This document shows positions 1,267-33,797 of a DNA stretch of 64,000 bases, piece by piece; the stretch's first letter is position 1; each line of letters opens with the position of its first letter. The notes below the pieces were generated by a model. That model ran no database searches. It was not told the DNA's origin and was given only the letters and a program-made list of their open reading frames with translations. Source of the stretch: Bryobacterales bacterium (lineage in GTDB: Bacteria > Acidobacteriota > Terriglobia > Bryobacterales > Bryobacteraceae); NCBI GenBank assembly GCA_003142185.1, contig PLOR01000022.1, forward strand, positions 2,336 to 66,335, given 5' to 3'. Made by a program: the position numbers and the translations under genes.

Positions 1267-1290
1267 GCGTTAAGTGGTGTTATCGCTAGC
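1267..1290 (+). repeat. Copy 1 of co-oriented bipartite motif RCGWTA-N8-TATCGG
   Basis: GCGTTA AGTGGTGT TATCGC TAGC. Lies 19 bp from the integrase-fragment start and 233 bp upstream of the 1523 ORF. Confidence 0.7.
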
Positions 1291-1522
1291 CGTTCTGCCG
1301 GACAAATCGCACCAACCCGTTGCGACGGCAACATCCAGGAAGCGGGGAATCCTGGGCCTTGCGGAATTTCGCTGGTCCGCAGCCTGAACAGGGTGTGGAG
1401 CCCGACTCCGAGTACGCCGTGATCCGGCCAGAATCGGAGAACACCCGGCGCTGAATTGCACGACTTGGCATCTCGGCTCAAACGAGTGCCGACTGGGATA
1501 TACTCGGGCAGAAAGGAGATTC

Positions 1523-2548
1523 ATGCGCAACATCGCGCTCGTCGTCGCACTGGCTAGTGTGACGGCGCTCTTTGCACAGTCACCATCGTCTTACCGCATC
1601 ACCCACACCTACACACTGGGCGGGGATGGCCGCTGGGACTACGTTGTGCCCGACCCACCCAATCACCGTCTGTTTATCGCCAGGCAGAATCGCCTGATGG
1701 TCGTCGACGAAGACAGCGGGTCGCTGCTTGGCGAAGTCAACGGCATCGATGGCGCGCACGGGACTGCGCTGGCGCCTGCCACGGGTCATGGATTCGCCAC
1801 CTCAGGTAACGACCAGTCCGTGGTGATGTTCGATTTGAAAACGTTCAAGGTGCTCGGCCGGATTCCGGCCGCCGAAGACGCCGATGCGATCGTCTACGAC
1901 AGCGTATCGAACCGCGTCTTCACAATGAATGGGGATGCGCACTCCTCGACGGTGATCGACCCGCGGGCGGGGACGAGGATGACGAACATTCCGCTCGGCG
2001 GCAAGCCCGAATACGGCGCGTCAGCCGGAGGCGGCAAGGTGTACGCAAACCTCACGGACAGGAGCGAAGTGGTTGAGATCGACGCGAACGCGGCGACCGT
2101 GTTGCGGCGCTGGTCCACGGCCCCGTGCAAGCAACCGGTCTCCATGGCCATCGACACCGCCCACCATCGGCTGTTCAGCGGATGCCGCAGCGGCCTCATG
2201 GCGGTCTCCGACTATCAGGCCGGCAAGGTGGTGGCGACGGTCGCGATCGGCACCGGCGTCGACGGCGCCGGGTACGATGCGGCCTCAGGCAACGCGTTTG
2301 CCTCGAATGCGAATGGCACGCTCACCGTGATTCATCAAGACACTCCGGACCAATATCGCGTTGTCGAAAACGTGCAGACGCCGCAGGGGGCGCGCAACAT
2401 GGGGCTCGACCCAACGAATCACCGCGTGTTCATCGTCTCCGCAAAGTTTGGACCAGTGCCGGCGGATGCGGCTGGCAGAGGCAGGCCACCGGTGCTGCCC
2501 GGATCGTTTACATTGATGGTCATCGAGCGCGATTCGTCAGCACCCTGA
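1523..2548 (+). CDS. Secreted YncE/YVTN-like beta-propeller repeat protein
   Basis: 341-aa ORF with signal peptide MRNIALVVALASVTALFAQ. Blade-like segments recur (PNHRLFIARQN, SNRVFTMNG, AHHRLFSGC, TNHRVFIVS). Confidence 0.65.
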   Translation: MRNIALVVALASVTALFAQSPSSYRITHTYTLGGDGRWDYVVPDPPNHRLFIARQNRLMVVDEDSGSLLGEVNGIDGAHGTALAPATGHGFATSGNDQSVVMFDLKTFKVLGRIPAAEDADAIVYDSVSNRVFTMNGDAHSSTVIDPRAGTRMTNIPLGGKPEYGASAGGGKVYANLTDRSEVVEIDANAATVLRRWSTAPCKQPVSMAIDTAHHRLFSGCRSGLMAVSDYQAGKVVATVAIGTGVDGAGYDAASGNAFASNANGTLTVIHQDTPDQYRVVENVQTPQGARNMGLDPTNHRVFIVSAKFGPVPADAAGRGRPPVLPGSFTLMVIERDSSAP

Positions 2549-2595
2549 CCGAGTGGAGGTCCTGGTCGACCGAATTGCGAATCGACCTGGCGACG

Positions 2596-2619
2596 GCGTT
2601 ATTTCGGGTTATCGGTGGC
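2596..2619 (+). repeat. Copy 2 of bipartite motif
   Basis: GCGTTA TTTCGGGT TATCGG TGGC, in the convergent gap between the 2548 and 2645 stop codons. Confidence 0.7.
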
Positions 2620-2644
2620 TACATCGCCGATCACGCCTGGCGCG

Positions 2645-4822
2645 CTACGGCAGCACGGTGAAATCGGTCCACTGGCCGGCGGCGGCTTTGCCGCCGTTTG
2701 TCTCCGCCGCGAGCACTTGCAGATCGTAGTCGCCGGGAGTAAGTCTGTCCGTCAGTTTCAGCGCGCCGAACACGACCTTCCCGCTGCCTTGCACGTCGAT
2801 CACCTGCGCCGGCGCCGAGAACACTTCCTTGCCATCGCGCAGAAGGCGCACCCGCGTGGTCAGATCTACATCCGGCTTCTTCTTGCGGCCGTTCTCAACC
2901 ATGCAAAGAAACTCGAGCGAGCCGCCGCGCTTGAACTGCCGCAGCGCCGGCATGATGTCCGGCAGGTCGTGCACGTCGTGCGACCGTTCGCCATCCAGCA
3001 GGATCACGCTGGCCAGCGCGAAACCCGTCTTTTTCAAATCCGGAATTTGGATGAACTGGGTGGCCGAGCCGATCCTGCCCGTCGCCTCGTCCCGTGCCGC
3101 CACGCGAATCTGGAACGCCCCGCGTTTTGGAACCGGCACGTCCAGCTGGTAGAGTGCACCATTCCGCTGCGCCTCAGCCATCCTGCCCGGGGCTACCCGT
3201 ATATTGAAAGTGCGGCCCACCGCGGCCAACGGTTGGTCGCCGGTGCCGGTGGCGACCGCCAATACCATAACCCGCGCCCCATCGCTGCCGTCGACGTTAT
3301 GCTCCCAAGTCAGGTCGGCCACATTGATTCTCATAAGGTTGCGGACCACCGGACCACGTGGTTTGGGCACCTCCGTATATAGCGCCGTCAGCCGCATTCC
3401 CACGCCGGAGGACCGGAAAGGCGATAGCATGGCGGCACGCAATTGTTCGACAGGTGTGTTGAACTTCGGAAGCGGCTGATCGTCCGTCTCGCCGAGGAAC
3501 CCGGATCGCGAGCGCACGTGCAGCCCGGCGCGCGTCACTTTCACCTGGATGCGGTGGAAGTCGCTCCTCTTGTTCTTGCCCAGCAACGTACTTTCGGGTG
3601 GGTGATACCCCAGCAGGTAGTAACCCGCCTGGTCCTCCAGCACCCGATCAAGCCCCCTGTTCAGGTCGTTGCCGTTATCGTAGGCCAGCCCGCCCGTCTG
3701 GTCCGCGAGGTAACCGAGATTCTCCTGCAGGATATTGTTTCTGATGCCCTTTCCGCTGCGATCGACGACTCGGGTCAGGTTGTTTGCGGGGGCGCCCACT
3801 GGAGTTACCGGCGTCTCATCCGGTGGCGGATTGTCCTGTGCGTCGAACTGCAAACTCTGCAATCCGGTCGCGCACATGGTGTAGATCACGGTGCCCGACT
3901 GGTTGGCCCGATCGGTCAGGATCCGAAGGGCCCGCTGAACGTCGGCGTTAGTATCCAGGGCATCGTCCGCCGCCTGCGTATTTAGTCTGTGGGCGTGCGA
4001 ACCGACGCCGGCTTCAGACACTTGCAGCCCATCGGAGAACAGCACGATTGATTTGCGCCCAGGCATCTCGCTGAGCGCGCCGACGATATAGTTGATTGCC
4101 CCGAGCGTGCCGACGGTTGAGATGGCGCTGTTTTCGCTGTCATATCGCGCATCGAGCGACTGGGAATCGTCGCTGAGGGCGGAGCCGATCAGGTCCCCCC
4201 ACGACGAGGATTTGGCGTATGGATCGAAGTACGTTATGCCAAAGCGTCCATTGGGGTTCCAACGCAAGCCGTCGATGACCGACAGCAGCACCCGTTTATC
4301 TGCGCTGAATTGCTGCAAGGCGCCCGATCCGGCGCCCGTCCGGCAGACCGCGACCAGGTCGCCCGGCTGCATCTGTTCGCTGACAAACTTGCCCAGCGAA
4401 TTGCGCACCAGTGCCATGCTTTTGAAGGAAAGGCCGAGATCATCCACCATCAGCACGATGGTCCGCCGCACGTCTTCCGGACGAAGCTGCGCCAGCGGTG
4501 GAGGCGGCAAGGTCGCAACGGAGCTGGGCGAAGGTTTTTCACGCGCCGCCTTGAGTTCCGCCGCCTTGGATACCGGGGTTATCTGGACGTACGAAAAATG
4601 CGTCAGCTTTTGCAGCTTGCCGTCCTCGAAGACCTGGAAATCCGCCGGGATGAGATTGGTGACCTGGTGCCCTTTGGAATCGGTCACTATAGCGTCCAAC
4701 TGCACCAGCGTCGAGGTGACGGCAAAAACCGCCTCGGGCCGCGGGGAGTCCGGCGCCGGCACGGCAGGCTGCTGCCCCGAAGCGAACCACACGCCAATCA
4801 AGACGCTGGCGGCTGCCTTCAT
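2645..4822 (-). CDS. VWA-domain protein of the VWFA-related acidobacterial-domain family
   Basis: 725-aa ORF with a signal peptide. The N-terminal block FAVTSTLVQLDAIVTDSKGHQVTNLIPADFQVFEDGKLQKLTHFSY is typical of that family. It is followed by a VWA-like core (IVLMVDDLGLS...). Confidence 0.75.
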   Translation of the reverse strand: MKAAASVLIGVWFASGQQPAVPAPDSPRPEAVFAVTSTLVQLDAIVTDSKGHQVTNLIPADFQVFEDGKLQKLTHFSYVQITPVSKAAELKAAREKPSPSSVATLPPPPLAQLRPEDVRRTIVLMVDDLGLSFKSMALVRNSLGKFVSEQMQPGDLVAVCRTGAGSGALQQFSADKRVLLSVIDGLRWNPNGRFGITYFDPYAKSSSWGDLIGSALSDDSQSLDARYDSENSAISTVGTLGAINYIVGALSEMPGRKSIVLFSDGLQVSEAGVGSHAHRLNTQAADDALDTNADVQRALRILTDRANQSGTVIYTMCATGLQSLQFDAQDNPPPDETPVTPVGAPANNLTRVVDRSGKGIRNNILQENLGYLADQTGGLAYDNGNDLNRGLDRVLEDQAGYYLLGYHPPESTLLGKNKRSDFHRIQVKVTRAGLHVRSRSGFLGETDDQPLPKFNTPVEQLRAAMLSPFRSSGVGMRLTALYTEVPKPRGPVVRNLMRINVADLTWEHNVDGSDGARVMVLAVATGTGDQPLAAVGRTFNIRVAPGRMAEAQRNGALYQLDVPVPKRGAFQIRVAARDEATGRIGSATQFIQIPDLKKTGFALASVILLDGERSHDVHDLPDIMPALRQFKRGGSLEFLCMVENGRKKKPDVDLTTRVRLLRDGKEVFSAPAQVIDVQGSGKVVFGALKLTDRLTPGDYDLQVLAAETNGGKAAAGQWTDFTVLP

Positions 4823-5051
4823 AATTTAAGTCTGACAGGTAGGTACCCTCCGCGCCAGCCTCTTTCGAGCCATGCCCATCGCCCGGCTCAGCGTGCTTGC
4901 GCAGGCAGTCGCTGTCTGCTTGGCCTTTTCTCTTATGCCGCATCGTGGACAGGCCGGTGCCGACCGCGCATCGCTCAGATAGCCGCCAAGCCGACTCTCT
5001 ATACTTGCATCGCGAAACTGCTGTTTTCTTCAAACGGCTTGGTAGTGGAGG

Positions 5052-5075
5052 ACGTTATCGCGCCTTATCGGTAGA
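5052..5075 (+). repeat. Copy 3 of bipartite motif
   Basis: ACGTTA TCGCGCCT TATCGG TAGA, in the divergent region between the 4822 start (-) and the 5213 start (+). Confidence 0.75.
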
Positions 5076-5339
5076 AGCAGCTTTCAGACTGTTGGTTTCG
5101 GCCGCTGCGGGCACTTCCCACAACCGGCCCGTGGTTTCCTGATCTTTGATACGCTTTACAAATGATCCGCCTTTTCCTGCTGCCTTTTCGCCGGTGCTCG
5201 ATTGAATCTGCCATGGCTCTTCGGCCGACGAATGTAAGCCGAGCCACGGCGGGACTGCTGCTGGCGCTGGCGTGGCTGGCAGGTGCGCCGCTTGCGGCAT
5301 TAGCGCAAAAAGCGGCCGATTACCCATCAGGACGTCTGG

Positions 5340-7292
5340 ATGATGAAGCGCATGGGCGAACCCGTGGTGAGCCCAGACGGCCGTTGGATTGTTTTCTCCC
5401 TGACGGAGCCCGATTACGATCCTGCAAAACAAACTTCGGATCTCTGGGTTCTCCGGTCCGATGGCACCGAGCCGCCTCGGCGGTTGACATATACGAAGGA
5501 ACCTGAGAACGGAGTGGCTTGGTCTCCCGACGGAACACGAATGGCTTTCTCCACCAAGCGGGAAGGCGATCAAACGCCGCAAATCTACATCTTGCCGATG
5601 TCGGGCGGCGAAGCGCGACGCGTCACAAACGTCCCTGGTGGCGCTACCGGGCCGCAATGGCGTCCGGACGGAAAGGCGATCCTCTTTCAAAGCCAAGTGG
5701 ACCCCATTGCCGAGCAGCGAAAGGACCGAAAATGGAACGCTCGCATTTACGATGCCATGCCGATCCGCTTTTGGAATGCCTGGCTCGATGAGCGGCGACC
5801 TCATGTCTTTGTCCAGGAGCTGAGTGATTCCGCCCAGCCGCTCGACCTAGTAAAGGGATCTAGGCTCGCGGAAAGCGCGGGCTTCAATGGTGTTTTCAAC
5901 GAAACGGGCGGGCAGGACCTGCAGGCGGTGTGGGCGCCTGACGGCAAGTCCATCGTGTTTGTCGCATATGCCAATCGAGACCGGATGATGGGCGAAGAAG
6001 TCGAGTCGAAGCTCTTTTTCGTCGCGGCGGCCGGTGGTGAACCGGCCGCGATTACGGAAAGAGGCGCTAGCTATGAGCATCCGCACTTTTCGCCGACGGG
6101 CAATTATTTATATGCGCAGACCGAGCGCAGCCCGGACCCGGCCGGACGACTCTATTCGCTGACCCGCTTGGCGCAGTTCGGCTGGCCCGATACAGGGAAA
6201 GTAAAGATCCTGACTAAGGGTTGGGACCGGTCGATCGGGTCGTTCTCGATTTCGCATGACGGGCGTAACGTCTACCTTGCGGCGGAGGATGACGGATTCG
6301 ACCAACTCTTCGAACTCACGGTATCAAGTGAGAAGCTGGAACGGATCATGCAAGTGACGGAGGGCGGCTATACAAGCGTTCAGCCGGTTGAAGGTGGTAT
6401 GGTTGCTGAGTTTCAGACGTCCTTGCGGCCGCCAGAGATTGTGCGCCTCGATCCCGCCAAGGGCTCGCACACCATGCTGACGAACTTCAACGCGGCGGCG
6501 GTGGCCGATATTGACGCACCCGCTTCCATTCATTTCTGGTTTGTGGCCAAGAATGGCAAACGCATCCACAGCATTATGACCCTGCCGCCGAGGTTCGATC
6601 CAGCCAAGAAATATCCCCTGGTGGTGTCTCCGCATGGCCGGCCGAACTCGATGTCGAAGGATAACTTCACGACACGCTGGAACAGTTACCTGCTTACGTC
6701 GCCCGGCTACGTACTACTCAGAACCGACTACACCGGTTCGACGGGTTTTGGCGAAAAATTCGCCGATGATATCGAGCACGATGTGCTGCGTGGCCCGGCC
6801 CAGGAGATCTTGGAGGCGATTGACGAGGCGGCTAAGCGGTATCCCTACATCGACACCAGCCGGCAGGCGGCGATAGGCGCGAGCTACGGGGGTTACTTGA
6901 TGAATTGGTTCAACGGGCACACGAAGCAGTTCAAGTGCCTGGTAATTCACGCCGGCGCGATAAACAACGAATCGCAGTACGGCTCAAACGATGGTGGCAT
7001 CGACCGTGAACTGCGCATGGGCGGTCCTATCTGGGAGAAGGGCGGCCAGTGGAACGATGAGAGTCCGTTGCGCTATGCGAATGAATTTTCAACCCCCGCG
7101 CTCATCACGGATGGCGAGCAAGACTTCCGCGTGCCGTTGACAGAGAGCATTACGACTTTCAAGATCCTGCAGCGGAGAGGCATCCCTGCGCGGTTAATTG
7201 TTTTCCCAGACGAAGGTCACTGGATTCTAAAAGGCGAAAACAACAGATTGCACATGGAAGAAGTGCTGGCGTGGCTGAAGCGTTATTTATAG
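5340..7292 (+). CDS. S9-family serine peptidase (prolyl oligopeptidase / acylaminoacyl-peptidase type); the signal peptide is displaced into another frame
   Basis: 650-aa ORF with N-terminal propeller repeats (SPDGRWIVFS, SPDGTRMAFS, RPDGKAILFQ, APDGKSIVFV). Catalytic elements are GASYGGY (Ser), DGEQDFRVP (Asp) and PDEGHW (His). The matching signal peptide starts at 5213 in the -1 frame (see finding). Confidence 0.85.
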   Translation: MMKRMGEPVVSPDGRWIVFSLTEPDYDPAKQTSDLWVLRSDGTEPPRRLTYTKEPENGVAWSPDGTRMAFSTKREGDQTPQIYILPMSGGEARRVTNVPGGATGPQWRPDGKAILFQSQVDPIAEQRKDRKWNARIYDAMPIRFWNAWLDERRPHVFVQELSDSAQPLDLVKGSRLAESAGFNGVFNETGGQDLQAVWAPDGKSIVFVAYANRDRMMGEEVESKLFFVAAAGGEPAAITERGASYEHPHFSPTGNYLYAQTERSPDPAGRLYSLTRLAQFGWPDTGKVKILTKGWDRSIGSFSISHDGRNVYLAAEDDGFDQLFELTVSSEKLERIMQVTEGGYTSVQPVEGGMVAEFQTSLRPPEIVRLDPAKGSHTMLTNFNAAAVADIDAPASIHFWFVAKNGKRIHSIMTLPPRFDPAKKYPLVVSPHGRPNSMSKDNFTTRWNSYLLTSPGYVLLRTDYTGSTGFGEKFADDIEHDVLRGPAQEILEAIDEAAKRYPYIDTSRQAAIGASYGGYLMNWFNGHTKQFKCLVIHAGAINNESQYGSNDGGIDRELRMGGPIWEKGGQWNDESPLRYANEFSTPALITDGEQDFRVPLTESITTFKILQRRGIPARLIVFPDEGHWILKGENNRLHMEEVLAWLKRYL

Positions 7293-7347
7293 TGGCGGTT
7301 CGATAACTCGCCAAGCGGCGTTCCGGGAAGTGGGCACAACCGAACGG

Positions 7348-7380
7348 GCGTTAAGACCTGATATCGGCAGCCCTGCGCTG
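7348..7380 (+). repeat. Copy 4 of bipartite motif (long form with CAGCCCTGCGCTG tail)
   Basis: GCGTTA AGACCTGA TATCGG CAGCCCTGCGCTG, in the convergent gap 7293-7493. The tail CCTGAT..CCCTGCGCTGC recurs at 7411-7430. Confidence 0.75.
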
Positions 7381-7493
7381 CCCTACAGCTCAGGCACATC
7401 GGTGGTTCGCGCCTGATGCCCTGCGCTGCTGCTGCTTTGCTCTTCTTCCGCGCACTGAACAGCCGAGTCCAGAATGATCACACTGTTAACGGC

Positions 7494-8579
7494 TCACTTT
7501 CTTAATTGCTGGACGAAGAAATCCGCCATCATGTGGTTAGCCTCGATGGCCTCGGGAAGCGCAGAGTCGTACCAGAAGGCGTGGGGCAGAGCGTCGAAGA
7601 CAACCAACCGCGCATCGACGCCGGCGTTCAGGTAGGCGCGGTGCAGGTTGACGGTGCCTGAGAGCAGCAAATCGCGGCCGCTGGTGATGAATAGGGTGGG
7701 CGGCAGCCCATGCAGGTCGGAGAAGATCGGCGAGAGCAAGGGATCCCGTCGGTCAGTGGCGGCTGCGTACTCCGAGTCATGAGGTTCTGGCTCAGGCGAA
7801 TCCAGATGCCCCGAGAAGCCCCGCAAGCCGTAAACCGCCTCCGAGTCGCCGTAGCGTGCGAAGTCGCCCATCCCGCTGAAGATGCCGAGTGCAGCCGGCA
7901 GCGGCAGGCCCAGTTGCTTCAGGCGAGCGGCCACCTCTGCGGTCAGAATGGCCCCGGCCGAGGTGCCATAGATCACTATCTGGCTGGGCTTGTAGGTTTT
8001 CAGCAACTCCTTGTAGACGGCGACCGAATCATCGACGGCCGCGGGAAACGGATGCTCCGGCGCCAGCCGGTATAGCACGGCTACCACCTTGATCCTGCTG
8101 TAGCCTGCGATGGGAATTGACTCCGTATAGGAGCCGGAATCTGAGTTGAAGCCGCCACCGTGCAGGTTGAGGAGGACCTTGTCACGGTTGGCCTCGGGCA
8201 GCCCTTCCGGGGTGACAACGCGAACCGGAACTGCGGCGATCTTGTCCTCAACGAGCTGATTGGGGCAGAGCCGGCTCCATTCCACACGCGCACGGGCCGT
8301 GTAGCCATCGGTGCCCCGGCGGCGCTCGGCTAGAGATTGCGGGGGGCCCTGGTCGGGCATTTGTCGACTCAACGAGCGCTGAGCCTCGGCGCTGATGGTC
8401 TTCGGAACCGGAACAATCCGGGTGACGTGCGCCGTGCCCTGGGTGTCGATGTAGCTGGTGTCACGTGTGGGAGACTGAGTTGCCGTCGTGGGCTGGGGGG
8501 CGGCGGTGGGCTCCTGCGCTTGGACGATTGCGGAAGTCAGCAAGAGCAGCAGTGAGGCGGAACGGGCGAAGAGATTCAT
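7494..8579 (-). CDS. Secreted alpha/beta hydrolase, hormone-sensitive-lipase-type esterase
   Basis: 361-aa ORF with a signal peptide. It has the HGGGF oxyanion-hole motif and the GTSAG nucleophile elbow. Confidence 0.8.
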   Translation of the reverse strand: MNLFARSASLLLLLTSAIVQAQEPTAAPQPTTATQSPTRDTSYIDTQGTAHVTRIVPVPKTISAEAQRSLSRQMPDQGPPQSLAERRRGTDGYTARARVEWSRLCPNQLVEDKIAAVPVRVVTPEGLPEANRDKVLLNLHGGGFNSDSGSYTESIPIAGYSRIKVVAVLYRLAPEHPFPAAVDDSVAVYKELLKTYKPSQIVIYGTSAGAILTAEVAARLKQLGLPLPAALGIFSGMGDFARYGDSEAVYGLRGFSGHLDSPEPEPHDSEYAAATDRRDPLLSPIFSDLHGLPPTLFITSGRDLLLSGTVNLHRAYLNAGVDARLVVFDALPHAFWYDSALPEAIEANHMMADFFVQQLRK

Positions 8580-8707
8580 GGAATTGAGCTCCTCTTATGA
8601 AAGATTAATTCTGGCGCGCTCACACGCGGTCAGAATTGGAACTCCTTCACGATACCAAAGAGGGATGCGTGTGTTCCCCTGCCATGAGCGACGCCCGTTC
8701 CGCGCGA

Positions 8708-8731
8708 GCGATATGGTTCGATATCGGTAGC
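8708..8731 (+). repeat. Copy 5 of bipartite motif
   Basis: GCGATA TGGTTCGA TATCGG TAGC, 100 bp upstream of the 8831 ORF. Confidence 0.7.
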
Positions 8732-8830: not shown

Positions 8831-9172
8831 ATGCCGCTGTCACCGGGCGACAAACTTGGTCCATACGAAATCCTCGCGCCGCTAGGTGCGGGCGGCATGG
8901 GAGAAGTGTATCGCGCACGCGATCCGCGCCTCAATCGCCACGTCGCCATCAAAGTTTCTCAGGAACGATTCTCCGACTGCTTCGAGCGCGAGGCCCGCGC
9001 AGTGGCCGCGCTGAACCATCCGAACATCTGCCAGTTGTACGATGTCGGGCCGAACTACCTGGTGATGGAATTAGTGGAAGGCGAGGCGCTGGCGGCGCGA
9101 TTGCGGCGTGGAGCGTTGAAGCTGGAGGAAGCTGTTGCGGTGGCGAAGATCGCACGCTGTGCGGGCCGTTAA
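8831..9172 (+). pseudogene. Ser/Thr protein kinase, N-lobe fragment only
   Basis: 113-aa ORF with Gly-rich loop LGAGGMGEVYRA, VAIK lysine and NHPNICQLYD. It stops before the HRD catalytic loop and abuts the stop codon of the convergent OMP gene. Confidence 0.7.
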
Positions 9173-9965
9173 TTAGCGCGAGAACCGGATTGCAACTCCG
9201 CCGGTAAACTCGTCCATCATCCAATTGCCGCCGTAGTGTTTATCGAACCAGGGCTCGTATCGCAGCTCGGGAGCGACCGTCACGTTTCCAAAGCGGAACG
9301 GGAATTCCAGCGCGGCGGCTGCTCCCGCGATCGCTTGGCGGGAGACGGGAAAGGAGTAGTTGTCCACGGAGGTAGAAGTTCCGGAGAACGGATCTACAAG
9401 CTTGGCCATGCCTTCCGTGCCCGTGAGGAACCGCGGGTCCCATGCAGAACCGGAAATGCCGAAGCGGTTCTGCCTCAACCAGGGCGGGGAATTGCCACCG
9501 GTTTGCGGTGCTCGACGTTTTGCCCACTGCCTCGCCAAGCGGGCTGTTCACCCCGTACTGATATACGTCAATGTAGCTCGTAGCGCTGATCCCGACACGT
9601 TGATAGACCGGGTCGAAGCGAATTCGCAGCCGCGGCGCAATCGGAATTGAAGCTGAAAGCCCAATGGCTGGGTGGAGAGGCGCGCTCTGGTAATACCCGC
9701 ATTGCGCACCGGTCGCACAAAGCTCGGGGTAGGAGTAAGTAGTTAACGGCCCTACGAGCGGTGCATCGATTCGCACTCCCATTTCAAGTCGGGGTTGGGA
9801 AAAAACGATTGGAGTAAAGAGAAAAAGGACCAGTAGCGTACGATTCACATATCTAAGACCGCCGAGCGGCTTCAATTCAACTACAGCACCGGTACCTTTT
9901 TTGCAGAACTTTCCGATACAGTTGCCAGCTTGGGTCGCTAACAGGCGAAAAAACTCACGGCGCAT
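9173..9965 (-). pseudogene. Outer-membrane beta-barrel (porin/OmpW-like) protein with one frame break near 9470-9480
   Basis: The N-terminal part is in ORF 9240..9965 (signal-like LLVLFLFTPIVFSQ, alternating beta-strand pattern up to ...RWQFPALVEA). It continues in ORF 9173..9538 (NRFGISGSAWDPRF...ELRYEPWF...GVAIRFSR). Confidence 0.45.
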
Positions 9966-10164
9966 CGGATGTCCAACTTCCCCTCAGCCCGCAATCCTCC
10001 CGAAGGTTCTGGGTGTCGTCGGTCTGCAGACGCGGGTTTGCGCTACCATCAGGAATTGACAAGCCTGGACGAGCAGGCGCTGCACCGGATCGGCCGAGCA
10101 CCAGGACGTTGACTTTAGTGCCCGGCAGCGCAATGCAGGGCCGGCGCAAGCAAATCGACGAGAA

Positions 10165-11771: not shown

Positions 11772-12021
11772 TGGAATTGCGTATTCTACCGATAAAAAGG
11801 CGTAGTGTCCGGAAACTGGATCTGCATGAAACCGCGATAGTTCCGCCATTGCCCCGTACTCGCGATAATGGGCCTTGAAGACCCAGCGAGTTCTCGGCCC
11901 ATTCCGGTTTCTGCTGATCGCCGTTTCCGGAATTTCCTCTCCACGCACTTTGTTGCGCACTTGGCAAAAGTGGAAGACCAGGCCGCCTCCCGCGGGATTC
12001 AGGTGCGCATCGAACGTCATC

Positions 12022-12806
12022 GCTGCCGATCCCAAGCACATCGGTGCCGAGATCGGCTTCCTGAGTGTTCTGCATACCTGGGGCCAGACCTTACAGCCGC
12101 ATCCCCACGTTCACTGTGTGGTGCCCGGCGGCGGGTTGTCGCCGGATCATCAACAGTGGATCCGTGCGCCCAATCACTTCTTCCTGCCGGTAGGGTGCTG
12201 AGCCGGGTCTTTCGCGGCAAGTTTGTAGCGGGGCTACGACGAGCCTTTCGCCAGGAGAAGCTCGTCTTCTTCGGAACCTGCGGATCACTGGCTCAGCCGA
12301 AGGCGTTCTATGATTTCCTGCGAACACTATTCCGCGACGACTGGGTCGTGTACGCTAAGAAGCCTTTCGGCGGGCCGGAACACGTGCTCCACTACCTTGC
12401 CCGCTACACGCATCGCGTCGCCATCTCGAATCATCGCCTGGTCGAGATCGCCGATACTCAGGTGAGCATCCGCTGGAAAGATTATGCGCACTACAGCAAG
12501 CGCCGCGTAATGACGCTGACACACGAGGAGTTCTTGCGGCGTTTCCTCCAGCACGTCTTGCCTCGCGGGTTTCCCCGCATCCGCTACTTCGGGTGGTTTG
12601 CCAACCGCCGGCGTGGAGCGCTCCTGCCGCTTTGCCGTACGCTGCTGGCCCTCCAACCAACACCGGTTCCGATAAAGCCGGCCGTGGCGCCGATGCTCTG
12701 GCTGTGCCCTTGCTGTCAGGGAACCATGCGGGTCGTCGAACGGCTGACGGCCAGCCAACTACGCCGAGAGGAAAGTCGCCCGGTCAAACGCCTTGACAGC
12801 TCTTAA
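12022..12806 (+). mobile_element. IS91-family (HUH, Y2) transposase remnant: 5'-truncated with one frameshift near 12190
   Basis: The HUH motif HTWGQTLQPHPHVHCVVPGGG is in the frame of ORF 11875..12201. The sequence continues in ORF 11868..12806 with RVLSRVFRGKF..., the two-Tyr motif YLARYTHRVAISNHRL and a C-terminal CPCCQG. The N-terminal 150-200 aa are missing. Confidence 0.8.
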
Positions 12807-13358
12807 CACCGCACCACTTTCGTTCACTGGGCGTGGCTTCGGCGACACCTTACTTCACGTGTGTCTGCTCCGTCCACACGACTGCTTTTCGTCCCCCGCA
12901 TTGCCTGACAACGGTATTGCCGCAGCCCTTTCCAGCCGGGATCTCGCCCCGCCCCAGTCCTGCAACCTCCGTCAGCCGTACTCTATCCCGGACTCCACTG
13001 GAGACATCAGCATTCAAAACCCATATTTCGCGGCACCCCAGGCGCCGCGCCAGTCGCTTCCTTCTTACGACTCTATCCGAAACGGCCCGGCCTCTGCCTC
13101 ACGCCCGTTTCACCCAAGCATCGTCGGCCGGGCCGCTTCCGATAGAGATCTAGCGTGACTCGCCCGGAACCATCAATCGCGGGCGGAAAACGTTCCTAAA
13201 CGCTGCGCGGCTACTCATGAGGAATCCTCAGCAGGGAATCATGAGGCGGCCGGAGTCGAAGTTCCTTCGGCCGTTGTCCGGCTGGTCATGAGAGCACTTC
13301 GCGGGCTCGCTCGATCCAGATTAAGCGGCGCGTGCGATGAACGATCACCACTGCGAAG

Positions 13359-13550
13359 CTAGGTGGCGAAGTGCTGCTTCAGCCAGATGATCTGGGAGCG
13401 GATTTGGAACCCGCAGGACTGCAGGCCCAACTCCACCTCGGCGGCGTGAATGCCCGCATGCCAGACGTAGGCGACATCGCCGGGAAACAACTCCCAAGCG
13501 GCGGACCAGTCGACCCGATCGTCGTTGCGATCTTGCCACCTTGGCGGGTC
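13359..13550 (-). pseudogene. DNA (N4/N6) methyltransferase fragment of phage/plasmid ParB-methylase type
   Basis: My minus-strand translation reads DPPRWQDRNDDRVDWSAAWELFPGDVAYVWHAGIHAAEVELGLQSCGFQIRSQIIWLKQHFAT*. It shows a DPPY-like motif plus the NDD..DW...YVWH...IRSQIIW.K pattern. A stop lies 3 codons upstream and a premature stop follows. Confidence 0.55.
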
Positions 13551-13879
13551 CGCGGGTTACCTCGGGGCGGTTGAGGACATCAAGCAAATACTGGGACCGG
13601 GAGAGTCAGCCCCCGGATTCGGTATCCTCCACGCTGCCGGTCTGGGCTCTAAACGCAGCGCAATAAGGCGGGGTTGATTCTGTAGTCGGCGTGTCACAGG
13701 AGCAACGCCGTTCGAAAGTTGATGCAAGATTTGCACTTTGCGTACGGAAGGTGCAGGCGCGTTATCCCGGCAAGTGAGTGAAAGGTCTCACTCCGTGCGC
13801 GGCATGCAACTTGCTCAGAGAAGATAGTTGGAGGTCCATATCGGAAATTCCGGCTAGAAGCCCAAAGCAGAAATGCCGG

Positions 13880-14080
13880 TGGAAATCTCCGCCAAAATGC
13901 AACACTCCAACAAGGAGAAGCGTCACATCTCCAAACAGGCGGCAGAGTGAGCCGTTCTTGCTCGAGGTGCGGGGTGTCATCAACCTCAAGGGCAAGGGCC
14001 AGGTGAAGACTTGGTTCCTGGGCTGCCGGAGCGCCGATAACACCGCTATGACCGCGGCGAGAAGGCGGAGCGCCAAGTGA
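13880..14080 (+). pseudogene. Class III nucleotidyl-cyclase C-terminal remnant
   Basis: The ORF ends ...EPFLLEVRGVINLKGKGQVKTWFLG, matching the F.FE.RG...KGKG...TYFL end of cyclase domains. Upstream residues (VEISAKMQHSNKEKRHISKQAAE) appear only in a shifted frame. Confidence 0.4.
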
Positions 14081-14550
14081 TCGTCCACGCCTGGGAAAGA
14101 AGCCCGGTGCTGATCGTCATGGCCGGCGCACGTGCCTGTGCCATCCCGCTGCACCACGTGGCGGAGACCATGCGCCCTCTCCCGATTGAGCCCGTTGCCG
14201 GGACGCCAGGTTTCGTGCGGGGCGTGTCCGTAATCCGTGGTGCGCCGACTCCCGTCGTCGACCTCAAGGCGCTCTTGGAGAACGGCGAAAACAGCGCAAC
14301 CTATGGTCGCTTTGTGACCATAAAGCTAGGAGAGCGGCGGGTGGCCATCGGCGTGGATGGCGTTGTCGGCTTGACGAACCTCGATTCGGCCCAGCTTGGA
14401 GACTTGCCGCCGATTCTGCGAGATGTCGCCGCCGACCTCATCGAGGCGATCGGCACCCGCGACGCGCAGCTCCTCGTTGTGCTTCGTGCTGCGCGCATCG
14501 TTCCCGATGAAGTCTGGACAACCCTCGCGGCGGCGGAGGCGACGCGATGA
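14077..14550 (+). CDS. cheW: CheW-like coupling protein (WspB-like position)
   Basis: 157 aa with a GTG start. The CheW pattern is present: AIPLHHVAETMRPLPIEPVAGTPGFVRGVSVIRGAPTPVVDL...VAIGVDGVVGL. The stop overlaps the cheR start. Confidence 0.85.
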   Translation: MIVHAWERSPVLIVMAGARACAIPLHHVAETMRPLPIEPVAGTPGFVRGVSVIRGAPTPVVDLKALLENGENSATYGRFVTIKLGERRVAIGVDGVVGLTNLDSAQLGDLPPILRDVAADLIEAIGTRDAQLLVVLRAARIVPDEVWTTLAAAEATR

Positions 14551-16648: not shown

Positions 16649-16651
16649 CCA

Positions 16652-18124: not shown

Positions 18125-18128
18125 CCGA

Positions 18129-20186: not shown

Positions 20187-20188
20187 CC

Positions 20189-21313
20189 ATGGCGAAGACA
20201 CGTGTTCTGGTGATCGAGGATTCCCTGACGGTTCGAAAGCGCATGTTGGAGGTGCTGGCCGCCGATCCCGACATCGAAATCGTTGGCCAAGCCGGCGACG
20301 GCAAGCGCGGAATCGAGTTGTGCCAGCACCTGCGGCCGGACGTCGTCACCCTGGACATGATGCTGCCCGTGATGAGTGGCCTGGCGGTCACGGAATTCAT
20401 CATGGCCTACTGCCCGACGCCGATTCTCATCGTGTCCGCCTCGACGAACCGGGGAGAGCTCTTCAAGACGTACGAAGCCCTGGCGGCCGGCGCCCTGGAC
20501 GTGCTCGACAAGCCTCTGGGAAACGAGTCCGACGATACCTGGGAACAGAAGCTCGTCTCCACCGTCAAGCTCATCTCGCGCATCAAGGTCATCATGCATC
20601 CAAGGGCCCGGCTTGGCCCGATGGGACGGCCGCCGGGTGGCCCTGCTTCGATTGAGTCCGCTGCCCGCGGCACGGCGCTCGCTGCGCCCGTCGCGGAACG
20701 CCAGGCGCTGCAGCGAGAGGGCTGTCTGCGCGCCGTCGCGATTGGGGTCTCCACGGGCGGGCCAGCGGCGCTCATCGAGATCCTGCGCGGGTTGCCCCAC
20801 GGCTTCCCGCTTCCCATTCTCCTGGTCATCCATATCGGGAAGCTCTTCGCCCCCGCTTTCGCCGAATGGCTGGATGGGCAGAGCCCCCTCCGCGTTGCCT
20901 ACGTGGCCGATGGCGATCCTCTCCCTCCATTCGGAGAGGGGAAAGTGCTGGTGGCATGTCCCGACAGCCACCTCGTGCTCCGCCAGGGCAAGCTCCGGCT
21001 CACTCAGGATCCGGAACGACACTCCTGCCGGCCGTCGGTCGATGTTCTCTTCGCTTCCCTGGCGCAGGAGCTCGGTGCCGACTGTGCGGCCTGCCTCCTC
21101 ACGGGGATGGGCAGGGATGGAGCCGAGGGACTCTTGGCCATACGACGTGCTGGCGGAAGGACGATTGCCCAGGACGAATCGACGTCGGTGGTGTTCGGCA
21201 TGCCGAAGGAAGCGATCCTTCTCGGAGCGGCCGAGCAGGTCCTTCCTCTGGAGAAAATTGCGTCGGTGCTTGGCGCGCTGGCGCGCGGCGCGGATACAGG
21301 GAGGCGGATATGA
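20189..21313 (+). CDS. cheB: CheB-type receiver-methylesterase (WspF-like)
   Basis: 374 aa with REC (VLVIEDSLTVR...VTLDMMLPVMSG) followed by the methylesterase core (AIGVSTGGPAAL...LTGMGRDGA). Confidence 0.9.
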   Translation: MAKTRVLVIEDSLTVRKRMLEVLAADPDIEIVGQAGDGKRGIELCQHLRPDVVTLDMMLPVMSGLAVTEFIMAYCPTPILIVSASTNRGELFKTYEALAAGALDVLDKPLGNESDDTWEQKLVSTVKLISRIKVIMHPRARLGPMGRPPGGPASIESAARGTALAAPVAERQALQREGCLRAVAIGVSTGGPAALIEILRGLPHGFPLPILLVIHIGKLFAPAFAEWLDGQSPLRVAYVADGDPLPPFGEGKVLVACPDSHLVLRQGKLRLTQDPERHSCRPSVDVLFASLAQELGADCAACLLTGMGRDGAEGLLAIRRAGGRTIAQDESTSVVFGMPKEAILLGAAEQVLPLEKIASVLGALARGADTGRRI

Positions 21314-24180: not shown

Positions 24181-25035
24181 TCATCCGATATTCTTAACGC
24201 AAAGTCCTGATCGTAGACGATCAGGAAGCCAGTGTCCTTCTGCTCGAGCGGATGCTGCGCGGCGCGCCGGCAACGCGGGATTCAGTTGGGTTGGCAGCAG
24301 CGGGGCTTGGTGCAAGATCGCGTCGAACGTTGCCGCCGATGTGGTGCCCTGGAACGGCAACGCACCGGTAGCCATCTGATAAAGAACCACGCCAAAGGAA
24401 AACAGGTCGGTACGCGCGTCCAGATCATGGCCGAGAGCCTGCTCGGGCGACATATAAGCGATGGTGCCTACGGCCGTCCCGGGACTGGTGATCGGTTCTT
24501 CGGTCATGGCTTGCGTGGGCGCCAAGGAGTTGGCCGCCAACTCTGGCGGCCCGGTGATCTTGGCGAGCCCGAAATCCAGGACTTTGACGTGCCCGGCGTG
24601 TCCTGCCCGCGCGGGCCCGATAAAGATGTTGCCAGGCTTGATGTCGCGATGCACGATGCCTTTGGCGTGAGCCGCTGCCAGCGCGTCGGCGATCTGCATT
24701 GCCACCTGCAGTAACTCTTCCGAGGCGACAGGTCTGCCGGCGAGACGTTGTTGGAGTGGCTGGCCTTCCAGCAGTTCCATCACCAGGAAGGGCCGGCCCT
24801 CAGATTCGCCGATGTCGTAAATTGCGCAGATATGAGGATGATTGAGCGCCGAGGCAGCACGGGCCTCGCGTTGAAACCGCTCCAGCGCGACAGGGTCCGT
24901 GGCGAATTGCTCGGGGAGGATTTTCAGCGCCACATGACGCCCCAGCCGGATGTCTTCGGCGCGGTACACCACACCCATGCCGCCACCGCCCACCTTCTCG
25001 ACGATGCGGTAATGAATGAAGGTTTTGCCGAGCAT
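24181..25035 (-). pseudogene. Ser/Thr protein kinase catalytic domain, C-terminally truncated
   Basis: Natural-looking start [28 protein letters not shown], then [17 protein letters not shown] and SPEQ. Homology is lost after ...LNPALPA, and no C-terminal sensor domain is present. Confidence 0.7.
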
Positions 25036-25224
25036 CAACAAGTGCGCTTGGTACTGGCGCAGATGTTCGGGCCCGAGCTTGTCGGGCGGTTGGTGGAAGT
25101 GTTGGGCGAAGTCCTGCACGATTCGCAGGTAGCCTTTTACGGTACTCTGGGCATAATTACGACGCTGGAGTTCCTCCAGCATCATGGTTCGAAGTTGGGT
25201 CACAGGGACCCCCTTGTGACCCAT
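25036..25224 (-). pseudogene. Tyrosine-recombinase N-terminal SAM-like domain fragment, fused in frame to the kinase ORF
   Basis: The first 63 codons of ORF 24181..25224 read [53 protein letters not shown]. This is the XerD/IntI-like core-binding helix pattern, and no catalytic domain follows. Confidence 0.6.
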
Positions 25225-25385
25225 AAAATACCGCCGCGATCAGTCGCTTGCCGCCGGCCTGAACCACGCGCAGCGTCCGCCGCGCCAGCGGCTTCGTTCA
25301 AACGCGCCAGGGTTCGGTGATCGACATTGCCAATTCCCATTGAGCACGGCTTCGTTCCGCCAAGAGCGGCGCCCCGTTGACGCGG

Positions 25386-25409
25386 ACGTTATCACCTCAT
25401 ATCGGTAGC
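25386..25409 (+). repeat. Copy 6 of bipartite motif
   Basis: ACGTTA TCACCTCA TATCGG TAGC. Lies 160 bp from the integrase-fragment start and 221 bp upstream of the 25630 ORF. Confidence 0.75.
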
Positions 25410-26715: not shown

Positions 26716-27519
26716 TCAACATCTACCAGACTTTCCGCTGGTCTCGTCTCTGCGATTGAGTATATACCCGCCAGCCTCCGAACCGCACCGAGAGACCAGG
26801 TGCCGCATCGCCGTTCTTGCCCGTATCGCAGTGATGCTGGGCGAACGCCGCAGCCATCCGTTTCGCAGTCCTCCCTGCTGACGCGCGCCACTGTGACCAG
26901 AAACTTCGCAACAAGGGCCGAGGTCTTTCCCCAGCGCACTTGCTGCTGGAGCAATCTTGGCGAGACCCGACCGCATCCACGTGCGGCGATATCGCGCCTT
27001 ATCGGAAGCTAACCTGTCAGGCTGCCGGACCGGCGCCGCTCGCTGCAGAGTGATCTCCCAGATCCTCGCCAGTTCCTTTAACTCAACGGTCTCGTTCAAG
27101 CGCGCGGTATGGACGCCCAGCCGATGCTTGTGGCCGTCAGAGTAGCGCAAAGGATTGCTCTCCGGAGGGATTGTGTAGACAGTGGTAGTGAGCTCGTCCT
27201 GCTCAATCGCGAAATCCAGTTTAAGGTCGTTCGCTGGGCTGGCGTCCGCGGCTCCGCCAGGGAGCGGACGAAGAGAACGAAGAGACATTTCCGTGGAGGT
27301 CAGGCCGCGTTCGCGTACGATGACGTAGCGGTCTGAGAGAATCCCGGCAGGTCCATCTGGTTGCGGGAGTTCCACTGCTAACTTCGCACCTTGCCACCAA
27401 GACACCGGCCTGTGCCGAATACGCCTTTGCTGTTGGATTACGATACCGCACACGACGACGATCAGCGCGCTTAAGACCGCTGCACCCGCGATCCTGCGTC
27501 CCGTGACAAGGCGCCGCAT
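26716..27519 (-). CDS. Hypothetical membrane protein (3' third doubtful)
   Basis: N-terminal TM helix (IAGAAVLSALIVVVCGIVI). The last 90 codons or so are Arg/Gly-rich and contain motif copy 7, so the true end is uncertain. Confidence 0.35.
   Translation of the reverse strand: MRRLVTGRRIAGAAVLSALIVVVCGIVIQQQRRIRHRPVSWWQGAKLAVELPQPDGPAGILSDRYVIVRERGLTSTEMSLRSLRPLPGGAADASPANDLKLDFAIEQDELTTTVYTIPPESNPLRYSDGHKHRLGVHTARLNETVELKELARIWEITLQRAAPVRQPDRLASDKARYRRTWMRSGLAKIAPAASALGKDLGPCCEVSGHSGARQQGGLRNGWLRRSPSITAIRARTAMRHLVSRCGSEAGGYILNRRDETSGKSGRC
26986..27009 (+). repeat. Copy 7 of bipartite motif
   Basis: GCGATA TCGCGCCT TATCGG AAGC. The spacer is identical to that of copy 3. Confidence 0.75.
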
Positions 27520-27643
27520 AAATTCTGTCCCGTATTCTACAGCGGGATCGCCAGGGTGAGAATCCCCTTGGCAGCGATCACTGATTTCCTTAGTGACACG
27601 AGTTCGCTGACGGCCGCGGTCCCGGCAGGGCTACTCCAGGCGA

Positions 27644-27667
27644 ACGATAAGGTTTATTATCGGCAGG
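27644..27667 (+). repeat. Copy 8 of bipartite motif
   Basis: ACGATA AGGTTTAT TATCGG CAGG, 140 bp upstream of the 27807 ORF. Confidence 0.65.
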
Positions 27668-28170: not shown

Positions 28171-28229
28171 CACTCGCTTGAAAAAGCCGTTGATTCTAAA
28201 GCCGGTCTTCCGGCAGCCGAAGTGCTCCT

Positions 28230-30134: not shown

Positions 30135-30144
30135 GGAGCTTCGC

Positions 30145-32001: not shown

Positions 32002-32098
32002 CGGGCGTCAGAGCTATCGAATCAATCGATGCACTCAGTAGAACACGCGTTGGAATGGGCCTCGTTCAGGCATGAACGGCGCTCGTCTCGCGCGAGCG

Positions 32099-32446
32099 TT
32101 ATTCGCTATTCTCGGACACTGTTTTTCTTACGGTGTACTCGCGGGCTGTAATCATTCGTGCATTGGTCTCACGCGGCATGATCTTGACAGTGGCGGAGCG
32201 AGCGCGTGCGCCGATCATCGGGCTTAGTTGTGCCGGCGCCTTCGCTTCAGGCCAGTAGCGGAAGTTGCGGAGGCCGGCGCTGCCGGAGCCGGCGGCGAAA
32301 ACGGCGGGGCGGAGGTCGAGGAATCCGCCGAGGACGTTGTGGTGCATGCCGCTGACTTCAGCCGATTCGCGGGTCTTTTGCCAGCTTTGGCCGGGGAGGC
32401 GGAAGTAGAAATCGATTTCCTGATTGTCGTTGCTCGCGGATCGCAT
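32099..32446 (-). pseudogene. Possible C-terminal beta-sandwich fragment of a glycoside hydrolase (GH43-C-like)
   Basis: 115-aa ORF (IDFYFRLPGQSWQKT...HHNVLGGFLDLRPAVFAAGSG...FRY) with no catalytic domain upstream. The assignment is tentative. Confidence 0.25.
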
Positions 32447-32596
32447 GCGAGCGCTAGGTTATGAGTTACAACCGGGGTCGGCGGCACCGGTGTGGTCGCC
32501 ATTCTGCGCAACGGCGAAGGTCCATCGGTACTTTTGCGCACCGATATGGACGCTTTACCTGTTGAAGTACGGGTACGTTCATTTGCGCGGGAATAG
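32442..32596 (+). pseudogene. M20-family amidohydrolase (hippurate-hydrolase-like) N-terminal fragment with a frame break
   Basis: My translation gives RMRALGYE, then after a shift [34 protein letters not shown]..., followed by a stop at 32594. Confidence 0.5.
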
Positions 32597-32755
32597 ACTT
32601 CACAAGCAGGTAAGTCGTGGTATCGTTGGCTCGGCCCGGGAGGCAAAGGGGAATCCCGGTTCAATTGACCCATCCATTGGCCGTTTCGGTTACCTCGTCA
32701 AACGACTTGACAGGGGACCTGACGAGCCCGTTACAAAGAGAGGACAAGAAAAACA

Positions 32756-33424
32756 ATGCGCATGCTACTTACCGTCGTGGCCCTGTCTGCTGCCGCGGGT
32801 TTCGCCCAGGATGTCGTCCAGTTGGCGCCTGAGCGCGTGAAAGTACTCATTGAAAATGACCAAGTTCGTGTGCTCCGTTTCAGCGAGCCTGGGCACAGCA
32901 AGCTGCCGATGCATTCGCACCCGCCCTACGTGTCGGTGGCGTTCACGGCTGACTATTCCAAGTACATGTTTCCCGATGGGAAAACCAGTGAGGAACACAC
33001 CAAAGCGGGCGCCGTTGACTTTTTCAAAGCCGTCACGCACGCGTTCGAGAATCTTTCCGACAACACGGCTGAGTCCATCATGGTGGAGTTGAAGGACCGG
33101 CCGCCCGCAGCCGCGGCGGTGACGACGGAGATGGACCCCGTCAAAGTCGATCCCAAACATTACAAGGTGTTGATCGACAATGACCGGGTTCGCGTACTGC
33201 GAGCCAGGTACGGGCCACACGAGAAATCGGTGATGCACGAACATCCGGCCTCGGTCGCCGTGTTCATGACGGACAGCCACGCCAAATTCAGACTACGGGA
33301 CGGCACGTCCCAGGACATCAATACCAAAGCCCGCGATGTGACTTGGGCGCCCGCGGGAAAGCACCTGCCGGAAAACCTCGGCGACAAGCCGATGGAAGTG
33401 ATCGTGATCGAACTAAAGAGATAG
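32756..33424 (+). CDS. Secreted bicupin-like protein (two tandem cupin-like repeats)
   Basis: 222 aa with a signal peptide. There is an internal duplication: VKVLIENDQVRVLRFSEPGHSKLPMHSHPPYVSVAF versus YKVLIDNDRVRVLRARYGPHEKSVMHEHPASVAVFM. Confidence 0.6.
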   Translation: MRMLLTVVALSAAAGFAQDVVQLAPERVKVLIENDQVRVLRFSEPGHSKLPMHSHPPYVSVAFTADYSKYMFPDGKTSEEHTKAGAVDFFKAVTHAFENLSDNTAESIMVELKDRPPAAAAVTTEMDPVKVDPKHYKVLIDNDRVRVLRARYGPHEKSVMHEHPASVAVFMTDSHAKFRLRDGTSQDINTKARDVTWAPAGKHLPENLGDKPMEVIVIELKR

Positions 33425-33526
33425 CCGAAGCCACCTGAATGGGCTCCTGCCCCAAAAGGTAAAAGGGTGTTCAGGAGCCCCGAATCCACGGAGGTGCAGG
33501 CTTGGCGGTTCTCTGCGGAATAGGCG

Positions 33527-33550
33527 GCGTTAACGCGCCTTATCGGCCGA
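33527..33550 (+). repeat. Copy 9 of bipartite motif
   Basis: GCGTTA ACGCGCCT TATCGG CCGA, 100 bp downstream of the 33424 stop. Confidence 0.75.
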
Positions 33551-33764
33551 AGCGACACTAGCCTCCTGATCTTGGCCTCCCCGCCGCTCAGGCGAGCATC
33601 GAGGTCGGTTGGGAGATACTATTAGTCTGACCGAGACGCCGAACGTTGCCCTTTCTCAAGAGTTAGACTGCTATGCCGACCGACCCCAGGGAATACATCT
33701 GGCGTGGGCTCGAACATTCCCAGAGTGCTCCCCGTTCCGGACAAGTGAAGGCTTTTGCCTCACG

Positions 33765-33797
33765 GCGTTATGACCTGATCTCGCCAGCCCTGCGCTG
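33765..33797 (+). repeat. Copy 10 of bipartite motif (long form, second half degenerate)
   Basis: GCGTTA TGACCTGA TCTCGC CAGCCCTGCGCTG. It matches copy 4 at 29 of 33 positions. Confidence 0.65.

Follow-up and report, generated by a model that had tools for sequence, protein, structure and literature searches.

What is a short, bipartite motif that recurs at gene junctions, always in one orientation and with a fixed internal spacing? The question is raised by a 64,000-nucleotide stretch from a Bryobacterales bacterium (assembly GCA_003142185.1, contig PLOR01000022.1, positions 2,336 to 66,335 of the forward strand; hereafter the window), which carries 11 copies of such a motif within 33 kb, every one of them on the + strand and between 1 and 34 kb. 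We describe the arrangement as a Xer-type, integron-like module array: functionally it is integron-like, and by its parts it belongs among the Xer/dif systems. We infer from sequence comparison that the copies are probably recombination sites, which a genetically linked, Xer-like tyrosine recombinase would bind and recombine. A more tentative step is that the modules between the sites are, or once were, mobile cassettes that could excise and integrate.

Motif copies in the window and their architecture

The window has eight exact matches to RCGWTA-N8-TATCGG, each of them on the + strand, where shuffled sequence would give 0.01. A mismatch scan of the window adds the copies at 1267 (one mismatch) and 33765 (two mismatches), and these are together the ten clear, co-oriented copies reported in a preliminary description of this DNA. 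An arms-only position weight matrix (PWM), trained on 145 acidobacterial sites, was applied to both strands of the window at a threshold of at least 12, with five shuffles as control. The ten copies score 17.9-36, and the shuffles gave no match. The same scan recovered an eleventh copy at 32096 (PWM 19.6) that the inventory of the preliminary description had missed, and it places the two degenerate copies counted there, at 10106 and 10786, at background (-3.7 and -30.5). No further match of at least 12 was found on either strand except palindromic echoes of two sites, in agreement with the earlier observation that the minus strand and 34-64 kb are free of copies; none lies in the window's 30 kb of core genes. 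Among the spacer subfamilies proposed earlier, CGCGCC (three copies: 5052, 26986 and 33527) and GACCTG (two copies, 7348 and 33765, which also have the tail CAGCCCTGCGCTG in common) stand, but the two-copy 'AGGTTTAT' subfamily falls because the degenerate copies score as background.

Alignment of the flanks shows that conservation ends outside ~28 nt. Because bases 7 and 14 of the motif as first written are A or T in every copy, the layout is 7-6-7, extended to 11-6-11 when the outer conserved bases are counted, as in the logo from 145 sites. A variable 6-bp centre separates the weak arm, (G)R-RCGWTAW, from the strong arm, WTATCGGYAGC. The resulting RRCGWTAW-N6-WTATCGGYAGC has the layout of a Xer/dif-type core site, with two inverted ~11-bp arms about a 6-bp central region. 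As the inner arms CGWTAW and WTATCG are inverted repeats around that centre, the unit is partly palindromic. The earlier description of it as non-palindromic must therefore be amended, while its separation from classical repetitive extragenic palindromic (REP) elements holds. Read on the minus strand, the strong arm becomes GCTRCCGATAW and agrees with the XerC arm of predicted acidobacterial dif sites (PMC3025954 supplement 2), namely ACTTCCGATAA-CGAATA-TTATGTCAACT in Solibacter and ATGTCCGATAA-CAGATA-TTATGTTAACT in Koribacter; for site 7, GCTTCCGATAA agrees with Solibacter ACTTCCGATAA at 10/11 positions. Neither the dif-like architecture nor two tyrosine-recombinase gene remnants in the array (793-1248 and 13557-13584) had been recognized before. 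The centres are variable and drawn from a limited repertoire: the same centre turns up between genomes at ~1%, against 0.02% expected for random hexamers. The sites of the window are as follows.

Site 1, 1263..1290, + strand: weak arm CGGAGCGTTAA, centre GTGGTG, strong arm TTATCGCTAGC; PWM 28.4
Site 2, 2592..2619, + strand: centre TTCGGG, between convergent genes 1523-2548(+) and 2645-4822(-); PWM 31.0
Site 3, 5048..5075, + strand: centre CGCGCC, between divergent genes 2645-4822(-) and 5340-7292(+); PWM 26.7
Site 4, 7344..7371, + strand: centre GACCTG, between convergent genes 5340-7292(+) and 7494-8579(-); PWM 30.2
Site 5, 8704..8731, + strand: centre GGTTCG, upstream of a Ser/Thr kinase fragment, 8831-9172; PWM 36.0
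Site 6, 25382..25409, + strand: centre CACCTC; PWM 34.4
Site 7, 26982..27009, + strand: centre CGCGCC; PWM 31.5
Site 8, 27640..27667, + strand: centre GGTTTA, the most palindromic copy, GCGAACGATAA-GGTTTA-TTATCGGCAGG; PWM 24.1
Site 9, 32092..32119, + strand: centre TCGCTA, a weaker copy; PWM 19.6
Site 10, 33523..33550, + strand: centre CGCGCC; PWM 20.0
Site 11, 33761..33788, + strand: centre GACCTG, degenerate strong arm ATCTCGCCAGC; PWM 17.9

Site 11 lies 238 bp past site 10, with an empty module between them. Sites 4 and 11 have the centre GACCTG in common and sites 7 and 10 the centre CGCGCC, and the second pair is properly nested within the first, which fits, weakly, a history of successive insertions. 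The centre of site 1 recurs in a related locus (L007, at 16119), and the strong-arm flank of site 5 is homologous to locus L071, whose centre and other flank differ. Around site 7, a 203-bp segment (26824-27026) is 91.6% identical to 558-753 of L090 and is the sole homology between both loci; at its end is an inverted heptamer that resembles the weak arm (GCGATAA / GCGATAC). A comparable segment of ~175 bp, also with a site, is common to L036 and L038.

Distribution in related genomes

A scan of a genome collection (one genome per species) with GCGWTAWNNNNNNWTATCGGNAGC returned at least 118 stretches. Among the matches listed, 74 were assigned to Acidobacteriota, namely Bryobacterales, Bryobacteraceae, Solibacter and other Terriglobia metagenome-assembled genomes (MAGs) from peat and soil, and the other 44 are single matches in unrelated phyla. 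Occurrence of the motif is lineage-wide in Bryobacterales/Terriglobia genomes, and on one complete chromosome it is found at several loci (2.09-3.02 Mb of OY970385.1).

Site statistics were compiled from 74 acidobacterial 8-kb stretches among these matches together with the window, in which the PWM gives 149 sites. Adjacent sites have the same orientation in 69 cases and the opposite orientation in 4, with a median spacing of 1.95 kb. By crude GC3-based gene calls, 146/148 sites are intergenic, and in the related genomes (148 sites) no combination of flanking-gene orientation is preferred over the other three (29/29/26/25). The intervals between adjacent sites contain no called gene in 19 cases, and one, two or three genes in 32, 13 and 4 cases, respectively; where there is a single gene, it is oriented with the site in 14 modules and against it in 18. 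The cargo is diverse, with Ser/Thr kinase-propeller proteins as the commonest family, and no close homologues of the window cargo proteins were found among 200 related loci. This pattern is what arrays built by recombination look like.

Outside the Acidobacteriota, a Treponema MAG (CAUTZW010000048.1, 54% GC; L146, 2085-2583) contains four tandem 160-bp repeats, each with a perfect motif, GCGATAA-N6-ATATCGGCAGC. No homologue of the Xer-like recombinase described below was found in the 8 kb of this locus.

A Xer-like recombinase linked to the sites

In three of the related loci (L056, L084 and L129) we identified a conserved gene for a 307-aa tyrosine recombinase; its ATG is preceded, at a distance of 20-35 nt, by a strong arm and centre. 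In L084 this gene is accompanied by four co-oriented sites, which lead away from its 5' end. In profile searches the recombinase of the L056 type matches XerC best (124 bits, below the equivalog cutoff), and its alignment with E. coli XerD spans the catalytic R, HxxR, H and Y residues. The family comprises at least 7987 proteins, the best 120 of which are all 307 aa long and 85-95% identical; the public names of its members are generic only.

A metagenome scan for the recombinase yielded 80 loci, of which 41 are independent at ≥68% identity. The strong arm, as GCTNCCGATAW with at most one mismatch, occurs at -29 to -44 from the ATG in 36/41 independent loci, compared with a chance of 1.5% per 80-nt window. 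It is preceded by a conserved promoter-like sequence, TTGATG-N17-TAAGGT. After it come a centre, either TGCCCA or GGCCCA, and a weak arm, which in most cases overlaps the ribosome-binding site. As homology among these loci is limited to about -85 to +925, the recombinase gene and its site form a compact unit found in varied contexts. Three recombinase paralogues lie within 100 kb in a site-dense region of OY970385.1, and truncated copies of the gene are common. In 6/6 loci where the recombinase gene has sites to either side, their orientation flips across the gene; the pair that flanks it in L241 is inverted and has GCGGCC as its common centre. More distant relatives of the recombinase (53-59% identity) have no copy of the motif, and their flanks yielded no other repeated dif-like motif.

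The truncated integrase at 793-1248 of the window, the ATG of which is 15-19 nt from site 1, was considered as the cognate enzyme and rejected: its homologues are variably truncated phage-type integrases in loci with at most one site. This family (P0001-P0120) consists almost only of variably 5'-truncated copies of 136-263 aa. One member, P0014, is a chimera in which residues 81-133 of the Xer-like recombinase are joined to a phage integrase of the 793-1248 type, and in L010-L013 genes of both types are present within 3 kb. A further locus (L014, 1-3146) contains three tandem tyrosine recombinase genes, resembling a recombinase-in-trio (RIT) arrangement, beside an IS21-type element.

Sites as junctions and a proposed mechanism

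Two loci 96 kb apart on OY970385.1 (L242 and L244) have a 2.4-kb duplicate in common: identity is 100% up to and including GCCTTCCGATAT-CAGGTC-ATAACGC, and the sequences are unrelated from the following base onward, placing one duplication boundary exactly at a site. At the other boundary the similarity decays gradually. The recombinase copies of both loci have lost the strong arm precisely at the arm/centre border. About 200 nt upstream of the duplicated recombinases (~9720-9800), the 3'-half of a tRNA (…GGTTCGATTCCGTCCCTGGCCACCA, reverse strand) lies beside a serine-recombinase (resolvase) fragment, perhaps the trace of an older island that had integrated at a tRNA gene. The all-against-all flank comparison gave few informative pairs.

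We propose that a site-specific tyrosine recombinase of the Xer type uses each unit as its core site, with the weak and strong inverted arms as putative binding arms and strand exchange in the variable 6-bp central region. The likely enzyme is the dedicated ~307-aa Xer-like recombinase, which is multi-copy in Bryobacterales and whose gene bears its own copy of the site between promoter and ribosome-binding site. Directly repeated sites partition chromosomal islands into modules, mostly of one or two genes in either orientation. Two direct sites with matching centres could recombine and release the module as a one-site circle, and inverted pairs would permit inversion. As the reverse reaction would insert circles at resident sites, the arrays could grow and be shuffled as integron cassette arrays are.

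Several observations weigh against this proposal. In the window species, site-bounded excision or insertion polymorphism was not found: the array is identical across 72 contigs, compared through exact-protein look-ups in three partly overlapping sets of 24. Two breakpoints between close relatives (L151/L156 and L084/L151) fall off sites, and adjacent sites with the same centre occur in 0/73 cases, which is not predicted by a simple matching-centre model of the latest insertion. About half of the recombinase loci are solitary, with no further site within 4-10 kb, and most arrays, including that of the window, have no intact recombinase nearby. Lastly, some sites are inside longer conserved segments of 175-203 bp, which could be short site-bearing elements that move instead.

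Alternative explanations and comparison with known systems

The sites could instead be substrates of the host XerC and XerD, in modules resembling integrative mobile elements exploiting Xer (IMEX) or pdif modules, with the linked Xer-like gene incidental. We consider this unlikely, although the strong arm equals the acidobacterial XerC arm and the 11-6-11 geometry fits sites of host Xer. Precedents exist in pdif modules and IMEX arrays (PMC12907356, PMC11705084, PMC9226527). However, the second arm (WTAWCGYC) does not match the XerD arm TTATGTYAACT, canonical dif, searched as GATAA-N6-TTATG, was not found within the window, and a dedicated recombinase gene bears the site in most of its loci. 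The window has a GC-skew peak near 25 kb.

Successive pdif sites alternate in orientation, whereas the sites studied here are directly repeated, with the 69 co-oriented and 4 inverted adjacent pairs given above. The Acinetobacter pdif/xrs sites are likewise 28-bp, 11-6-11 Xer-type sites that bound small gene modules, thought to be moved by Xer-type recombination (PMC12907356, PMC11705084). They differ in relying on host XerCD and in being mostly on plasmids, while the present sites are chromosomal, are linked to a dedicated recombinase and have a second arm that is not XerD-like. IMEX at dif (CTX/TLC phages, the gonococcal genetic island) also leave directly repeated hybrid sites bounding the elements after tandem integration; those arrays sit at a single chromosomal dif, of which one genuine copy persists, whereas the window has no canonical dif and the arrays described here are found at several loci. 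A chromosomal dif is a single copy at the terminus, in contrast to 11 copies in 33 kb and several loci per chromosome. The XerS/difSL and XerH/difH systems are also single-copy, resolving chromosome dimers at the terminus. Their Xer-like recombinase gene is genetically linked to the dif-like site (PMC2731167), much as the recombinase gene adjoins a site here in 36/41 loci; at least three recombinase copies and many sites on one chromosome set the present system apart.

Distinctly unlikely, in our view, is that the motif is a non-recombining intergenic repeat, either a miniature mobile or REP-like element or a protein-binding site (DNA-organising or regulatory, for instance an operator for autoregulation of the recombinase), the arrays reflecting local spread. 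Intergenic placement would suit a repeat, as would the 175-203-bp segments conserved between genomes with otherwise unrelated flanks and the failure to find site-bounded polymorphism in the window species, and the position between recombinase promoter and ribosome-binding site would suit an operator. Against this, conservation at most copies is limited to the 28-nt dif-like core, one duplication boundary falls exactly at a site, no Rfam family matches, and co-orientation of 69:4, independent of gene direction, is unexpected for operators or REPs. REP units and bacterial interspersed mosaic elements (BIMEs) are palindromic hairpin units found genome-wide in both orientations, unlike these strongly co-oriented and clustered sites.

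A classical integron cassette array, with the motif as part of attC, is very improbable. The topology fits, in that a recombinase gene with a proximal site stands at one end of co-oriented sites about one gene apart, and GTTA of the weak arm loosely recalls the attC core GTTRRRY. However, the recombinase is not an IntI because it scores 37 bits against the TIGR02249 cutoff of 265, matching only at its C-terminus (profile positions 228-297); IntI-type integrases are marked by an additional domain specific to them. The attC sites are imperfect inverted repeats of 57-141 nt (R''-L''...L'-R') that fold as hairpins. Here only ~28 nt are conserved, there is no imperfect palindrome of 60-140 nt, and minimum free energy folds of 164-nt windows (70 nt on each side of the copies) share no structure. 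Integron cassette genes are mostly co-oriented with the array, whereas gene orientation within the present modules is random.

The features in common with integrons, among them sedentary chromosomal integrons and clusters of attC sites lacking integron-integrases (CALINs), are a tyrosine recombinase gene with a site just upstream, long co-oriented arrays at about one-gene spacing, many arrays without an integrase, accessory and highly diverse cargo, and stability within species. The differences are a Xer-like recombinase without the IntI signature, multi-copy in each genome; 28-bp dif-like cores of the double-strand type instead of folded attC hairpins; genes in either orientation; and site orientation that flips across the recombinase.

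That the motif is a promoter, terminator or other transcription signal has next to no probability: the sites do stand at gene junctions, some followed by short GC-rich hairpins in the window, but their intergenic pattern is orientation-neutral, convergent, divergent and tandem junctions all being used, and consensus scans found no promoter or terminator coinciding with the window sites, which excludes such signals, as the preliminary description had already argued for a simple promoter.

Two other candidates were rejected. A structured RNA was dismissed as there is no Rfam match, no tRNA and no common fold around the copies, and a phage origin as a viral collection gave 17 single, chance-level matches.

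Overall, the present system stands apart from integrons, chromosomal dif, pdif modules and XerS/difSL because the features that define each of these were not all found.

Gene context of the window and loss of its recombinase

The window sites occupy convergent, divergent and tandem gene junctions. From 1267 to 8708 there is one site in each intergenic gap and one gene per interval, with alternating strands; the cargo comprises a beta-propeller-like protein, a VWA protein, an S9 peptidase, an esterase and a kinase fragment. Sites 5 and 6 are separated by 16.7 kb, which contain the remnant of an IS91-family transposase and a chemotaxis operon. One window protein matches TIGR03436, in line with an acidobacterial source. 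The further features that bear on the array are listed below.

793..1248, - strand: 5'-truncated phage-type tyrosine recombinase open reading frame (ORF), 151 aa, abutting site 1 and of another family than the Xer-like recombinase
11868..13556, + strand: IS91-family (Y2) transposase remnant (ORF 11868-12806) and the right end of the element
13557..13584, - strand: promoter remnant, CTTGATGTCCTCAACCGCCCCGAGGTAA, of a lost Xer-like recombinase unit, by comparison with L184
14077..24156, + strand: chemotaxis operon CheW-CheR-CheW-MCP-CheA-CheB-hybrid kinase, between sites 5 and 6 and without an internal site

Locus L184 is 95% identical to 13557-23512 of the window and then continues directly with promoter, site and recombinase, whereas the window, after the promoter remnant, breaks into the end of the IS91-family element. 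By this comparison, the element has replaced the site and gene of the window's own Xer-like recombinase. The site lost next to the promoter remnant would have had the orientation of the other eleven. An identical array is present in a Stordalen MAG (GCA_003160185.1) and in many peat metagenomes. The array of the window is probably a frozen one, its recombinase gene destroyed by the IS91-family element and its composition invariant in the species.

An IntI-like integrase associated with IS91 elements was also rejected as the cognate enzyme, since the conserved element end lies at variable distances from sites. Such an integrase normally precedes IS91-family transposases (L041, L092 and L099), and the conserved element end, GCGTTAGAACTAAGCCGCTGGCGCGGCGGACGC, is found near 25305 in the window. 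There, a fusion ORF (24181-25224, - strand) has as its first ~65 aa the SAM-like N-terminus of the IntI-like integrase, in frame with a Ser/Thr kinase domain. The transposase matching this N-terminus lies 12 kb away on the opposite strand, suggesting an inversion or other rearrangement.

The kinase gene after site 5 (8831-9172, + strand) is cut short and encodes 113 aa. In the window species, several short-read contigs begin or end between 7391 and 9092 (contig ends in L237-L240), which may reflect variation between strains, or a repeat, in this stretch. Just beyond the array, two adjacent genes (38613-41255, - strand) encode MAP3K_TRAF_bd/TPR-S domains and a TIR_2 domain (gene table of L230) and may form a defence or signalling unit. 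At 45678-56712 (- strand), a CO dehydrogenase/acetyl-CoA synthase cluster (CdhC/ACS beta, two CdhD-like subunits and the RACo activator) indicates a Wood-Ljungdahl-type module in an acidobacterium.

Implications

To our knowledge, integrons are the only well-characterised builders of long arrays of single-gene cassettes by site-specific recombination. Full-text searches on acidobacterial dif, on integron-like cassette systems, on dif-like modules and on XerS/difSL gave no description of a system such as the present one. It is possible, although we put it forward tentatively, that Bryobacterales and other Terriglobia have a gene-capture platform analogous to the integron, with a multi-copy Xer-like recombinase in place of IntI and 28-bp dif-like double-strand sites in place of folded attC. 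Such a platform would assemble, shuffle and invert single-gene modules in chromosomal islands of tens of kb or more. If the sites were only binding sites, the finding would reduce to a lineage-specific repeat. If the platform is real, the 28-bp site would be a simple marker for such islands in metagenomes, and the recombinase and its site a compact pair for the toolbox. It would also be a second, independently built platform, implying that the strategy evolved more than once, here based on dif-like sites and a Xer-like enzyme, in Acidobacteria that abound in peat and soil and have large genomes rich in paralogues. Such a system would help to explain how these bacteria gather accessory genes, among them those for Ser/Thr kinases, beta-propeller proteins, hydrolases and MacB-type permeases.

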